Assembly: GCA_964016885.1 (NCBI GenBank)
Contig: OZ024745.1
Span: forward strand, 22,134,001 to 22,198,000
Source: Eledone cirrhosa
Lineage: Eukaryota
Direction of reading: 5' to 3'
Length of the DNA: 64,000 nt
Below are positions 6,711 through 48,213 of the stretch, in pieces. The notes under the pieces were generated by a model. It was not told the origin of the DNA, did not search any database, and saw only the letters and a program-made list of their open reading frames with translations. A program made the translations under genes and the position numbers. Within the stretch, counting starts at the first letter, position 1. Every line of letters starts with the position of its first letter.

Positions 6711-6848
6711 TTATTTTAATAAATATTTGCTCTACGGTTCTTATATATTTGATATATATTTTCCTTATCGAGCCCTCTTTGGATTTTAGTCTTCAATTTT
6801 ATTATTATTACTATATATATATATATATATATATATATATATATATAT

Positions 6849-8460
6849 AATGGAAAATTTGAACAGGAACAAAACAGAGAGGCAGTACAACGAATGTTTA
6901 TTAATTTCACGCTCTGGAGAGTGGGGTGGTGGTGGGGAACGACGTTTCGGGCATAAGCCCTTCCTCAGGTGAGAAGTGTGTGGGAAGAGAGTTCAAAGGG
7001 TGTGTAGAGGAGTGGTGGAGAGACATATAGCGAAGAGGGGGTGGGAGGAAACGGTGCGAATGAAATTAAAAATAAAAATAAAAATAAAAATAAAGCATGA
7101 TCAAAATAAAATGAAATGAAATAAAAATAAATATAAAAGCATGATCAAAATAAACTGAAATTAAAAAGGGGTAAAACAGGTGGTGGAAGGGTGTGGGGTG
7201 TGTAGGGGTGGTGGCGGGTGGAGTGGGGAGAGGGAGACGGGGTGTCCGAGGGGGAGGGCTAAAGGTGGTGTGTGTGTGTGTAGGTGTACGTGTGTGTGTG
7301 TGTATGTGAAATCAAGGGTTGGGGGAAGAACGGGGTTCCATGTTCAGGAAGAGGTGTGTGTGGGGTGGGGTGTAGGTCGGAGTGTCTGTGCGTGTGGATA
7401 GAGGGGTGGGGGGAGAGGAATCCGGAGGCTGAGGGTGTAAATATGTGGTGGAAAGCACGTGTGTGTGGGGTTTAAGCGTGTTGTGGGTGTAGGTGGCGTG
7501 TGGGAGAAAAAAAATTGTTGGGGGTGTGTGTGTGGGTGAGTTATATAGGTGATTCCGTAAGAGGATGAGGTTGAAATGTTGGTAAACTCCTATGATGTTA
7601 GTAGATTCCACGGTGGTCAAGTTCCACATACGAGTATTCCATGAAGAGATGGTCGGAAGAGGAGACATGTGGGGTGCGCGCGCAACAGGAAGTGGTCAAG
7701 GCGGTGGGAGTGCTGTGTGTCTGTTTGTGCTGGGAGGTGGTCAGAGGGCATAGCAGCAGTCGGGTGGAATGGTAAAGGGGCGAGGATGGGTCGGTGTGAA
7801 AGTTGGAGTGAGGAGGGTGTGTGTGTGTATTAGTAGAGGTGTTAGTGGGATGAGTGAGTGTGGAGAAAGGGTGTGGGTGGACCGGGGAGAGAAGGGTGTG
7901 GGGGTCGATGGAAGGAGTGTGGCGTACTGGTGTGTAGTTTGATGAAGGGGGTGTTAGTGGGTGTTTGTATACGGGAGGTGGGGAAAGGGTTGAAAGCAGG
8001 TGTGAGTGGGGGTTAGTGGTGATAGGGTGTGTAGAGTTGGTGGTGTACGAGGGTGTGTGGGTACGTGTACGTGGGGTTGCGGGGTGTTAGTGATGTTAGT
8101 TGCGTGTGGGGTGGGTGGTGTAAGTGGGTGCATGTGTTCGTGTGCTTGGGGTCAGGGGGTGTTAGTGATGTTAGTTGCGGTGTGGTGGGATGGAGGTGTG
8201 GGGGTGAGGGTTAGTGGTGGTAGTAGGGTGTGTGTTTAGTGTGAGCGCGTGTATATATGTGCCGGTGGGTGTGTGCGTGTGATAAGGAGGGGGGAGAAGA
8301 AGGGAGGGATGTTAGTATGTTAGTTGGGGAAGGGTGGACGGATGAGGGGTGGAGTGGAGGTGTTAGTATTGTTAGTTGTGGGGTGGGCGGTGAAAAGGAG
8401 GGGTGTGTTAGTGGTGTTAGTGGGGGATGTGTGTGGGAGGAGGGGGGCGGTCGAAGGCTA
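6849..8460 (-). mobile_element. G/GT-rich non-coding repeat with HHR-core-like motif, probably PLE-derived (second copy 38413-39540)
   Basis: About 1.1 kb similarity to 38413-39540; rc CTGAGGA-agggc ttat gccc-GAAA-cgtcg at 6938-6968; (TA)n at its 3' end. Confidence 0.65.
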
Positions 8461-8639
8461 AAGGAATAAGGGTGGGGAGTTCAGGCCGGGGGGGAGTGTG
8501 GGTCTGTAAGATGAAGATGGTTCTTTGTTCGACTCTAAGGAGATTGGCGGATGTTCCGTGGCATTGGAGTAGGCCACAGACTGTGAGATGGCGTGCGGAA
8601 TGTCCAGGGGCTCCAAAGTGGCGGGCGATGGGGGAACTA

Positions 8640-44502: not shown

Positions 44503-45435
44503 TAAGTTGTAATATAATGAAACGGAGTTTCATTTCTCACTCTTAGTACGGCACTTACTTAAATGTAAGTATGTATGTATACGTACATACATATATGTAT
44601 ACAGACGTACAGTAGCATGCATATATATATATATATACATACAGGTACACATATATATATGTACGTATCAGTTTAGCGAACGTTTATTATAACGCCCGCT
44701 TTGTCCGTTTGTAAACAAGCGAACAGCCTGATTTATGCCATACGGTGTTAAGGCAACCACGTCAGCTTTTTGTTCAACACTGACACAGGAACGATGTACT
44801 AGTTTCAAGCTTGTTAGCTATCATCAGCACCGTATACCCTTCTGCCAGATAGTTGAACGTTCGAAAGTATATACTTTCCTTATGAAAATTAACGGCTGAG
44901 CAGCCTAACAGGACAAAGCGGGCGTTATAATAAACGTTCGCTAAACTGATACGTACATATATATATGTGTACCTGTATGTATATATATATATATATATGC
45001 ATGCTACTGTACGTCTGTATACATATATGTATTTACGTATACATACATACTTACATTTAAGTAAGTGCCGAAATAAGAATGAGAAATGAAATTTCGTTTC
45101 ATTATATTACAACTTATCGTTTTCGGTACGCCTGGCCGACTGAACTCACTCGATATGCAAATTAGGCTGCTCAGCCGTTAATTTTCATAAGGAAAGTATA
45201 TACTTTCGAACGTTCAACTATCTGGCAGAAGGGTATACGGTGCTGATGATAGCTAACAAGCTTGAAACTAGTACATCGTTCCTGTGTCAGTGTTGAACAA
45301 AAAGGTGACGTGGTTGCCTTAACACCGTATGGCATAAATCAGGCTGTTCGCTTGTTTACAAACGGACAAAGCGGGCGTTATAATAAATGTTCGCTAAACT
45401 GATACGTACATATATATATGTGTACCTGTATGTAT
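44503..45435. mobile_element. Retrozyme-like element: 453-nt monomer, about 0.9 copy (minus) plus about 1.15 permuted copies (plus)
   Basis: ggacaaagcgggcg at 44911 and 45364; HHRs 44791-44833 (minus) and 45237-45279 (plus). Confidence 0.88.
45237..45279 (+). ncRNA. Minimal type I hammerhead ribozyme
   Basis: acggtg-CTGATGA-tagc taacaa gctt-GAAA-ctag-TA-catcgt. Confidence 0.88.
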
Positions 45436-45444
45436 GTATATATA

Positions 45445-48213
45445 TATATATATATAATAAATGGGTACAAAATATACGCAAGTATACATACATAAATGCG
45501 GCTGAGGGACAACAGAAAATATCTGGAGTTAAAAACACAAGTGACATGTGATGTCTGGTAGTGAAAGAAAAGGGGAAAGTAAAATAAATGTAAATAATGT
45601 ATAATTGTTAAGATATAAAGTTAATGAATCAAATAGCGGGGGGGGGGGGGGGTCACTACTGGATGTAAAGTAAAAATAAAGATAAGTAAAGCTGAATGAG
45701 AAGTCTATAAAAAAGGTAAGTTAAGGAAAGTGAAGAACAAGAGTTTATGGAGGATAAGTGTCTGAAAGTGAGTTAAGTTTATATGAGCTGGAAAGCAAAT
45801 ATGATTTCATGAGTGGGCAACTGATGAACATTTCTGTTTTTGCATTTAGGCAGGTTTTTGGTGATTTAAGGTTCTGTAAAAACCAATATTTTTCACTTAT
45901 GCAGAGTGCGCATCTTCTTGTTCCTCTTGCGTATTCTTTAGAATGGTTCAAAATTGACCAATCTAATTTATATTGGATACCTTGGTCCTTCAAATCCCAA
46001 ATTCTGCTAGCCAGAGCTGTTGTAAATCTTTTTTCAGGATGTCAGAAAGATGCGACATGTAAGTAATAATGCATTTTGAATTTGTCTTGTGTCATACCCA
46101 CATATCGTTCGCTGGTGGCTGGTAGGTTGTTGCTTTGTTGCTGGTGGTTGTCACTTTGGCCTCATATACAATGGCTTTGGTGTTGCATTTACTTTGTAAT
46201 GAGCATTCACTTTTGACTCTACAGGAGCAATTTTGATATTCTCTGGGTGTTTTCTTATTAAGGATAGATTTAATAGAGGGACCGCAGGAGTAGTTGATTT
46301 TGACACAATTTCTATTGAAGATCTTATAGTATCTATGTGTTCTAGGGAAATGTTTATCTAAGAGCTCTGGGAATGTTTTGCCTACATTAGTTTTAACTGC
46401 TAAAGAGTAGGGGGTGTGAATCAGATTATTTTTCTTTTCCTATTATTATGTTTAAAGGAGTTAGTATTGTTGGACATGTACTTAATCGGTTCACTAAATC
46501 CACTATTTTGAAGGGCTTTATTATAGTAGGTGGATGCCTTATTGAAAATAGCTTCTGAGGAAGAGAGGGTGGAGATCCTACGGCTAATATTAGGGATGAG
46601 ATTTTTAAATAATATAGGAGGATGGCAAGAGCCTTTATTTATGTATTTTAAATTTTCATTAGGTTTATGGTACGGTTTATAAGAAGCAGTAGACAGATCT
46701 AGGTTTACATCTAGAAAATTAACATTAGAAAGGTTTCTGGCAATTGTAATTTTAAGATTAAAACTAGCGAAGGTTTTTATTAAGTCTTTCCTGAATCTGT
46801 CTATGTTATGGCCTATCGTAGTATGGGAAAGTATTAGACCATCGTCACGATAAAGCCCAATGGTATGGTTATGGAATTTCTCTTTAAGTGTGTAAAGGAG
46901 GAATAGGCCGACTAAATCGCACACGTCAGCACTGTCAAAAGAACCCATTGAGACATCGAAGGGGTTCTCTGGGTTAGATTTTATTTTACCCAAGTATCAT
47001 TATTAGTAAACAGTAAAGTATTTCTAGCATGCAAAATGACATTCTCTTCAATATCAGAAATATTAATAAACTTTTTAGCAAAATTTAATGCTTTTGTTAA
47101 AAGAAGGAGAGTAATAGACGGGTAGAAGTCTACAATGTCAAATTGGGTGAATCTAGAACTATTTTTATCTTTAATATTTTTAAACCAATGTACTACAGAA
47201 GAGCTATTTATCCATTGGAGTAATTCTGACTTACTTCTAATATGTTTGTTTATGTTATTTAATATTTTTTTGCTAGCAAGGCCGATTTCAGTCTTAGCAG
47301 GGTTGATTAATCTACAACTGGGACGATTATTAAAATCGATCTTTAAGAGTGATATAGGCATTACGTTTTGCAAATGTTTCTGTTCTATTGTCTATTTTAA
47401 AAAAAACTAGCTAATTCTTTGGCGTCCTTATTAATAGTATTATAGGGATTTATGTTAGCTCTTTGGTATTTAGAGGTGATGCTATCTGTATAGAGTTGGT
47501 CATGTAAGTTATTATTAACTTCGTATTATTAACTTCAGAGAAAATGAACTTATTTTTAGAAGATTTGAATTTTGAAATATCGTTAGAGGGTTTAGATTGA
47601 AAAGAGTTAAAGTACTTACGGAATTTGATTTGGTTAATTAAATTAACTAAGTCTAGTTCAAAAGCGGTCATGTCTTTTACCCTTTGTGGGTATTTATGAG
47701 ACTTGATGTCAAAGTATTCTGTAGAGTCCGTGATAAAGTGTCCGTCGAAAATCAAAGCTTTCCATCTCATCCTTTTTACAACTTTTTCTACTTTGTCGAT
47801 CAACATTTTAGTGTAGGAAGTGTTAGAAGGTGTTGGTATATTCTTGATGGAGTAATCCAAAAAATAACAATCCATGTTAGGTATTGGTTAAAATTCCTTT
47901 TAACTGAAGAGTGCTCGACTTTAAGGGCCTGGAAGGTGCCAGAATCATATAAATGTAGAATATGCTACAATCATTCCGTTGGGAGCTGTATAAGTATTGA
48001 AGTTTTCGTTGAAAATTGAAAAGGTCAGAGGAATGAAGAGTGCTATATGTAAGTTCCAGAACAGAGCTAAATATTTAATGTATAATAAACAATACAATAT
48101 AATTACCTCATTACCAAAGGTTTCCCGAATAATACGAATACAAGAAACGTCCGCATTCGTCCGTCAGACAAGGCAATTTAAAACATAGTGAAATATTTCA
48201 AAAATCATCTCAA
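45445..48213 (-). mobile_element. Near full-length Penelope-like (Naiad-like) element with 5' HHR repeat; 3' UTR cut at (TA)n
   Basis: 5' HHR 48101-48177 homologous to the 3' HHR of the sister element (52606-52683); ORF pieces below. Confidence 0.92.
45745..47875 (-). pseudogene. Frameshifted PLE RT-GIY-YIG polyprotein gene
   Basis: YSIKNIPTPS, KRMRWKA, CRLINPAK, FDIVDFYPSI, FDVSMGS, LYRDDGL, CALCISEK spread over several frames. Confidence 0.92.

Follow-up and report, generated by a model that had tools for sequence, protein, structure and literature searches.

We asked what fixes the ends of Penelope-like elements (PLEs) of the Hydra clade, using a 64,000-nucleotide (nt) stretch of the Eledone cirrhosa genome (contig OZ024745.1, assembly GCA_964016885.1, positions 22,134,001 to 22,198,000; hereafter the window). 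This part of the 3.0-Gb genome is rich in (TA)n tracts and inverted repeats and, to judge from its sequence, is packed with such elements. PLEs are the closest relatives of telomerase, and the sole in vitro study found two internal starts and no signal. An earlier note on the window had pointed to a hairpin, NCTC/GAGN', just past the point at which the short arm of a fold-back (two arms joined head to head) stops, and had proposed that this RNA positions the reverse transcriptase (RT). Here, we find that the hairpin is doubled downstream of the hammerhead ribozyme, and that the elements' copies stop a few bases short of either hairpin 1 (end A) or hairpin 2 (end B). The doubled signal is real, conserved and covarying, and apparently specific to the Hydra clade. 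Each hairpin is probably an RNA docking site that positions the element's RT to start a few bases upstream, thereby setting both starts.

Fold-backs were collected from an own-genome sample of 1.06 Mb, made up of the window and 100 further 10-kb loci, of which 10 lie next to the window and 90 were taken from 12 contigs at round-number positions. Retaining those with (TA)n outside one arm only, tandem duplicates included, left 134 of 317 raw fold-backs. The motif NCTC..GAGN' begins between -6 and +14 from the short-arm end in 59 of the 134, compared with 0/134 on the target side, 1-7 of 132-134 in nine shifted windows, 753/20,000 random windows (3.8%) and 549/26,800 shuffles (2.0%). It is present at half or more of the copies in 17 of 49 sequence clusters. 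The hairpin is thus enriched at the position that the earlier note had given it, and all 11 sites listed there, compensatory variants included, were found where it had placed them. The hammerhead said to lie upstream was recovered in part: a full core lies 43-68 nt upstream at five of the 11 sites, and none was found within 130 nt at the other six.

The motif, 20-30 nt in size, has a basal stem of four pairs (NCTC/GAGN'), above which the 3' strand carries a bulge of 2 nt (TN), and then an upper stem that covaries. Its loops, which were said to share no sequence, are not structureless, since they hold the upper stem and the TN bulge. With a 2-nt bulge, at least two upper pairs form in 13 of the 17 clusters (mean 2.65 versus 0.59 in shuffled sequence, a value equalled by 0/2,000 shuffles), and with bulges of 0, 1, 3 or 4 upper pairing falls to chance level. 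The bulge reads TA, TT or TC in 15/17 clusters. The outer pair is A-T in nine, G-C in six and T-A in two clusters, outer pairing being itself part of the search pattern. The refined motif occurs 126 times in the own-genome sample versus 30-34 times in local shuffles.

Relatives from other sources supported this structure. Of 7,999 candidates scored in a protein search, 1,377 were relatives at E ≤ 1e-20, and a 61-protein alignment led to 88 loci, 77 from metagenomes and 11 from prokaryote assemblies. The first upper pair was counted, with no demand on the bulge or upper stem, in 40 of the 43 loci with the motif (three lack an RT segment), and was Watson-Crick in 39 of the 40 (20 C-G, 19 T-A). 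It switches within supported clades (L159/L161; L122 versus L152/L158), and the second upper pair switches between A-T and G-C in close relatives (L166/L173; L117 versus L119/L124), in a tree that contains Hydra-type loci only and no reference PLE rows. Pairing is preserved by these compensatory changes among RTs that are ~45-55% identical, with flanks and loops that are unalignable; the covariation expected of a structured signal was therefore present. Pairs were counted by anchored scripts because MAFFT misaligned the variable loops of 14 window hairpins. Loop length is free, from 5 to ~70 nt, and a hairpin 2 of the window (47910-47986, minus strand) retains base and bulge around an inner loop of ~65-70 nt. 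Splice-site and Pol III B-box readings, both judged by eye against consensus sequences, were rejected because of the compensatory changes. Degenerate basal stems altered on both strands (e.g. C-C/G-T-G types) were seen in the 5' and 3' regions of L180 and L183, as in the published Hydra-1_Crog, and the hairpin core is not absolutely invariant.

The earlier note had placed the hairpin in unrelated families; instead, every open reading frame (ORF) that could be linked to it belongs to the Hydra clade. Five window ORFs carry the motifs of Hydra-clade PLEs (RWK, DKT, CxCx5C and CxxC/CxH), with (TA)n targets and hammerheads alongside. RMRWKA is read in frame from 47875, and RWK is found in 77/79 homologues of at least 690 amino acids (aa). 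The DKG to DKT change appears as SDKT in the ORF at 53889-55766 and as DK[TS] in 114/120 homologues, and the CxCx5C linker in four window ORFs and 112/120 homologues. CxxC and CxH were seen in Hydra-type ORFs; the GIY-YIG domain was recognised by eye alone, and a Pfam search matched no family for the Hydra ORFs. The (TA)n insertion and canonical hammerhead of the clade are both present, with Rfam hammerhead matches that are sub-threshold. Unit length from hammerhead to hammerhead is ~3.6-3.7 kb in three families and so exceeds the <3 kb of the clade description, where "generally short (<3 kb)" is a tendency and not a strict criterion (PMC8557442). The Nematis clade, a first guess, was dropped in favour of Hydra after that description (PMC8557442). 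Scans of viral contigs found no relatives, and no RNA holder came up, which has no bearing on expression. Rfam gave no match to the hairpin at gathering score; the matches listed were sub-threshold, for the most part microRNA models, with a weak HH9 besides.

In the untranslated-region (UTR) zones of the 88 loci from other sources, the strict motif gave 53 sense versus 5 antisense matches, in 43 loci and mostly 44-63 nt past the hammerhead GAAA; in ORF zones the figures were 12 and 3. Six published Hydra consensus sequences, inspected by eye, showed the full motif in three, namely Hydra-2_Amil of a coral and the sea cucumber families Hydra-1_Ajap (twice) and Hydra-2_Ajap. Hydra-1_Crog has a degenerate form and Hydra-1_Amil a doubtful one, and none was seen in Hydra-1_Obim. 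Six 9-letter terms for the 3' strand gave four matches in these Hydra sequences, all near the ends, and three inside the far larger Naiad and Chlamys files, in searches where line breaks can hide matches.

Some families lack the hairpin. ORFs of another PLE clade, with no match to Hydra proteins, were seen at 2822-4133 of L099, near 7559 of L050 and near 7182 of L024, and the fold-back families near them have 40-55-nt tails and no CTC/GAG hairpin. Tandem units of ~470 nt, retrozyme-like and with no ORF found, occur at 24256-25130, 44502-45449 and 15327-15898 of the window and at 904-4042 of L008. The window copies carry hammerheads, and the units have two ends too, but no CTC/GAG hairpin; visual inspection showed a purine-rich block following one end that is complementary to a block following the other, possibly a different signal.

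We then mapped where copies end. The earlier note had the short arm stop and the long arm read on. The short arm does stop, but the long arm stops as well, at a second fixed end that is likewise followed by (TA)n. Hairpin 1, which the note had left out of the short arm, is carried by the long arm, where it opens the tail; the tail is the stretch between A and B, that is, the hairpin-1 unit. Among 307 TA-followed ends, 161 map to A, 134 to B and 12 elsewhere (295/307 at A or B), with 226 further alignment ends without following TA set aside. An end B just before hairpin 2 had been predicted before the long-ORF copies of the own genome (40 further loci chosen for long ORFs) were fetched. In five own-genome families hairpin 2 begins 3-11 nt after the aligned end B, a range blurred by TA overlap. 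Among 29 candidate 5' junctions from other sources, 18 have two hairpins, seven have one and four have none, compared with two hairpins in 6/1,218 ORF windows. The hairpins are spaced 57-83 nt apart at these junctions, and hairpin 2 stops 5-42 nt ahead of the ATG. At the 3' side, after exclusion of five that lie at contig ends or read through, 10/18 ends lie 0-3 nt upstream of one of the two hairpins, all five same-locus comparisons among them. Loose (TA)n ends at A and B were also found in short-read contigs, whose main run may come from the very sample that was assembled; their presence there speaks against an artefact of assembly.

The probability that this pattern arose by chance, or from a single sequence by passive descent, is negligible. 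All linked carriers do fall in one clade, as descent would have it. However, the position, structure, shuffle, strand and junction controls contradict it, and flanks and loops are unalignable while compensatory changes keep the pairing, so that it is refuted as far as sequence can refute it.

The two ends are not combined at random. Of 72 head-to-head pairs, 68 are AB, three AA and one BB, compared with 36, 19 and 17 expected under independent choice, and unselected loci alone gave 53 AB, two AA and one BB. The A arm is the longer in 11 and the B arm in five of 16 informative pairs, 13 of which come from loci chosen for a long ORF; 87 A ends are without a partner. A-arm cDNA cannot supply the tail, nor can a short B arm have given rise to a full-length A arm; both arms are therefore best read as separate syntheses. 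This bears on a single-start model in which the cDNA folds back and copies itself, with hairpin 1 as the stop for the second pass that makes the short arm. The model predicts the AB rule (68/72) and palindromic centres, but the A arm is too often the longer one (11/16) to have been copied from the B arm, and the 87 unpartnered A ends and hairpin 2 are left unexplained. Full-length A arms facing short B arms (L209, L219, L220 and L222) largely refute it, and we regard it as very improbable. The rule of one A and one B per insertion is suggestive of one complex, probably a dimer of the protein bound to a single RNA. The shortest fold-backs (115-220 nt; window 20325-20519 and 22829-22934, and L004, L007 and L057) consist of little beyond part of a hammerhead, the tail and nested small central inversions.

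Internal initiation of reverse transcription as such, which the earlier note put forward, is already published for Poseidon PAc: the purified protein extends both strands, using two internal starts with the tail between them (Frangieh et al. 2024, PMC11167929). The note's central idea that RNA positions RT is partly supported, in that a structured signal setting the end just upstream fits all genomic data; it had not foreseen that a second hairpin marks a second end. In the mechanism that we propose, the endonuclease would cut the (TA)n tract on both strands, and each 3' end would pair with a UA-rich patch ahead of one hairpin and prime its own cDNA. The two cDNAs would halt at variable points and be joined head to head, and the tail would be the hairpin-1 unit, copied only by the cDNA begun at hairpin 2. 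TA is found at -8..-5 upstream of the hairpin in 47/62 cases versus 21/62 at -12..-9. Such enrichment 5-8 nt upstream is expected if the cut (TA)n primer pairs there, and equally if the endonuclease cuts there.

The latter possibility defines an alternative, which we consider unlikely: the hairpins would be recognised in a DNA intermediate, and the GIY-YIG endonuclease would trim at a TA-rich site just upstream, so that the ends are cut sites. The TA enrichment at -8..-5 agrees with the enzyme's target preference, the model fits the D. virilis endonuclease, which requires the tail for recognition (as cited in PMC11167929), and our strand test did not separate RNA from cDNA. However, single-stranded nucleic acid is implied by a bulged stem whose loops range from 5 to ~70 nt, the cDNA starts of PAc fall on both tail ends in vitro (PMC11167929), and trimming alone offers no reason for one A and one B per insertion. 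A further alternative has the hairpins act in the 5' leader, in translation, in the packaging of RNA by the protein or in hammerhead control, with the ends set independently by nearby TA-rich sequence. Hairpin 2 does stop 5-42 nt before the first ATG, and PAc protein binding aids hammerhead cleavage (PMC11167929). Yet both ends hold the same short distance to their own hairpin despite varying spacing and intervening sequence, and other nearby TA-rich sites are rarely used (12/307 ends elsewhere), which makes a leader role quite improbable.

Docking of the RT at both hairpins remains our preferred reading, and several points weigh against it. The motif is absent at 75/134 fold-back ends and from 32/49 clusters; some of these lie near non-Hydra ORFs or are internal inversions, and others are unexplained. 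Three motif-less clusters lie near PLE-like ORFs without a BLASTP match to eight Hydra proteins (proximity, not proven linkage), and others have no nearby ORF. Outside the genome, 45/88 loci have no strict UTR-zone match, 11/29 junction candidates have one hairpin or none, and 8/18 3' ends fall off A and B, all eight aligned to another locus's junction. The 82 references used for end mapping are all tail-bearing copies, which makes the B class partly circular. RNA and cDNA strands were not separated by the upper pair (G.U 13 versus A.C 8, the 5' anchor being misassigned in ~10 rows), and on folding, the antisense strand was lower in 37/62 hairpins versus 16 for the sense strand. PAc starts inside an AC-rich stem-loop within the ORF (PMC11167929), whereas the ends here lie upstream of hairpin and ATG, and Craig et al. 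favour resolution by the endonuclease as the origin of the tail (PMC8557442).

The form of the template was considered separately. The simplest template is an RNA that is circular or end-jumped, because the hairpin pair must lie downstream of the copied part, and the many short arms that extend upstream past the GAAA argue against a linear RNA starting at the hammerhead cut. Of 42 full-ORF copies, 30 have a classifiable 3' end, none of which reads through to hairpin 2, and 12 are unclassified. The 5' repeats (pseudo-long terminal repeats, pLTRs) run to 71-1,648 nt in 11 loci, and same-strand 5' and 3' repeats of one copy differ at 7/1,857 sites versus 3.0-6.7% between loci. We hypothesise a circular or end-jumped template. 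Against such a template, four loci from other sources read through at the 3' side (L124, L128, L167 and L170), the A end of L211 differs from its junction at two sites, and PAc needs no hammerhead cleavage in vitro (PMC11167929). More tentatively still, one RT-endonuclease dimer might hold the two hairpins of one RNA, circular (or end-jumped), and copy from both sides of one double-strand cut simultaneously. If true, this geometry would account for the tail and the inversion of the head-to-head arms, for the rule of one A and one B, and for the partial tandems of variable length (pLTRs).

RT-bound RNA structures that fix where copying starts are familiar from hepadnavirus epsilon and from the template alignment and boundary elements of telomerase RNA. 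In the present case, target DNA serves as the primer and there are two copies of the signal, and we claim no sequence relation. A close match is offered by the C-terminal EN+ PLEs of the Hydra clade (Craig et al. 2021, PMC8557442), which share RWK, DKT, CxCx5C, CxxC/CxH, (TA)n targets and the hammerhead. Units here are ~3.6 kb with tails of ~60-130 nt, compared with <3 kb and 30-40 bp for published Hydra elements (PMC8557442). No hairpin is described in the main text of that work, where the word does not occur, and the tail is ascribed to endonuclease resolution (PMC8557442). In PAc, as here, two fixed points bound the tail, and there they are internal starts (PMC11167929); PAc also cuts and extends both target strands, uses AT-rich targets, is a predicted dimer and requires downstream RNA (PMC11167929). 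The PAc account reports neither a motif that is conserved, duplicated or covarying nor a rule by which the two ends pair, and the RNA letters in its Fig. S1 show no CUC/GAG stem (PMC11167929). Animal non-LTR (long terminal repeat) retrozymes (PMC7761336; 10.64898/2026.07.22.740005) likewise bear hammerheads and are linked to PLEs, with a circular RNA template and more-than-unit cDNA proposed. They are described without a conserved motif pointing to a helper element (PMC7761336), and the hairpin is a candidate for such a motif in Hydra elements.

PLE tails (PMC3846280) and PLE hammerheads (PMC4209133) were already published. The tail, the two internal starts and the hammerheads are thus known, and the doubled covarying hairpin and the AB rule are what we did not find described: a literature search, with subscription papers largely outside its coverage, returned no description of the hairpin, its duplication or the rule. 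The origin of PLE tails, inverted arms and pseudo-LTRs has been named as an open question (PMC8557442), and the hairpin's likely role in RT start would explain the one-sided tail of Hydra-clade insertions. Because the motif has a core, a bulge of defined size, naturally occurring compensatory variants and a set distance to either end, the question is directly testable with a few RNA mutants. The hairpin also marks Hydra elements, and the non-coding elements derived from them, at the sequence level, and is a candidate for a portable signal with which an internal RT start could be programmed.

Within the window, the near full-length Hydra element on the minus strand shows both hairpins. Hairpin 1 lies at its 5' read-through junction (48039..48067) with one 3'-strand base changed; the earlier note had rightly seen a hairpin there, and its TAGC at 48045 is a deviation of that copy, as the family has GAGC. 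Hairpin 2 (47910..47986; GCTC-C ... G-TC-GAGC-ACT, with a long inner loop), which had been missed, lies a few nt past the family end B (~47991-47993). Thirty-five nt past hairpin 2, the ATG at 47875 opens a broken Hydra-clade RT-endonuclease ORF (45711..47875) with the RWK motif. A 5'-truncated sister copy (52581..55721, minus strand) holds an ORF (DKT, CxCx5C), the 3' UTR, a hammerhead at 52625-52673 and an end A running into (TA)n; this end is present as noted earlier, but at 52581 and not 52582.

A large head-to-head pair of a second Hydra family (39944..44437) runs from end B at 39944 (-) to end A at 44437 (+), with hairpin 1 in its tail at 40000..40027 (-). Another pair (4717..6811) joins end A at 4717 (-), on the longer arm with an ORF piece at 5769-6452, to end B at 6811 (+), and hairpin 1 at 6729..6776 (+) has a G-C outer pair. 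On the plus strand, hairpin 1 is also found at 10804..10825 (fold-back 10663 to 10863 B), 11186..11208 (10896 A to 11270 B), 20449..20475 (20325 to 20519 B), 25284..25319 (T-A outer pair), 32870..32892 (32502 A to 32950 B) and 39833..39861 (39554 A to 39920 B), and on the minus strand at 28934..28961 (28886 B to 29187 A). The listed site at 31077..31113 (+) has the basal stem alone, with no upper stem in the usual register, and is decayed or atypical. Five copies of hairpin 1 lie beyond the earlier list: 10171..10218 (+; fold-back 10051 A to 10253 B), 22797..22823 (-; interrupted tail), 23048..23070 (-; 22986 B to 23125 A), 34147..34174 (-; partner end A at 34399, +) and 2369..2388 (-; tail to end B at 2304).

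A young Hydra family is represented at 40990-43362 of the window and in L209-L222, with 99% protein identity among the top matches, 821-aa frames and an Asn/Pro/Thr-rich stretch ahead of the CxCx5C linker. The Hydra elements within prokaryote genome assemblies (L178-L188) are probably host DNA in bins. A fragment of a non-PLE, LINE-like reverse transcriptase lies at 37192-38121 (+), with weak RVT_1 and DUF6451 matches. Finally, a 1.1-kb repeat with a minus-strand hammerhead core is present in two copies, 83% alike, at 6817-7931 and 38380-39540.

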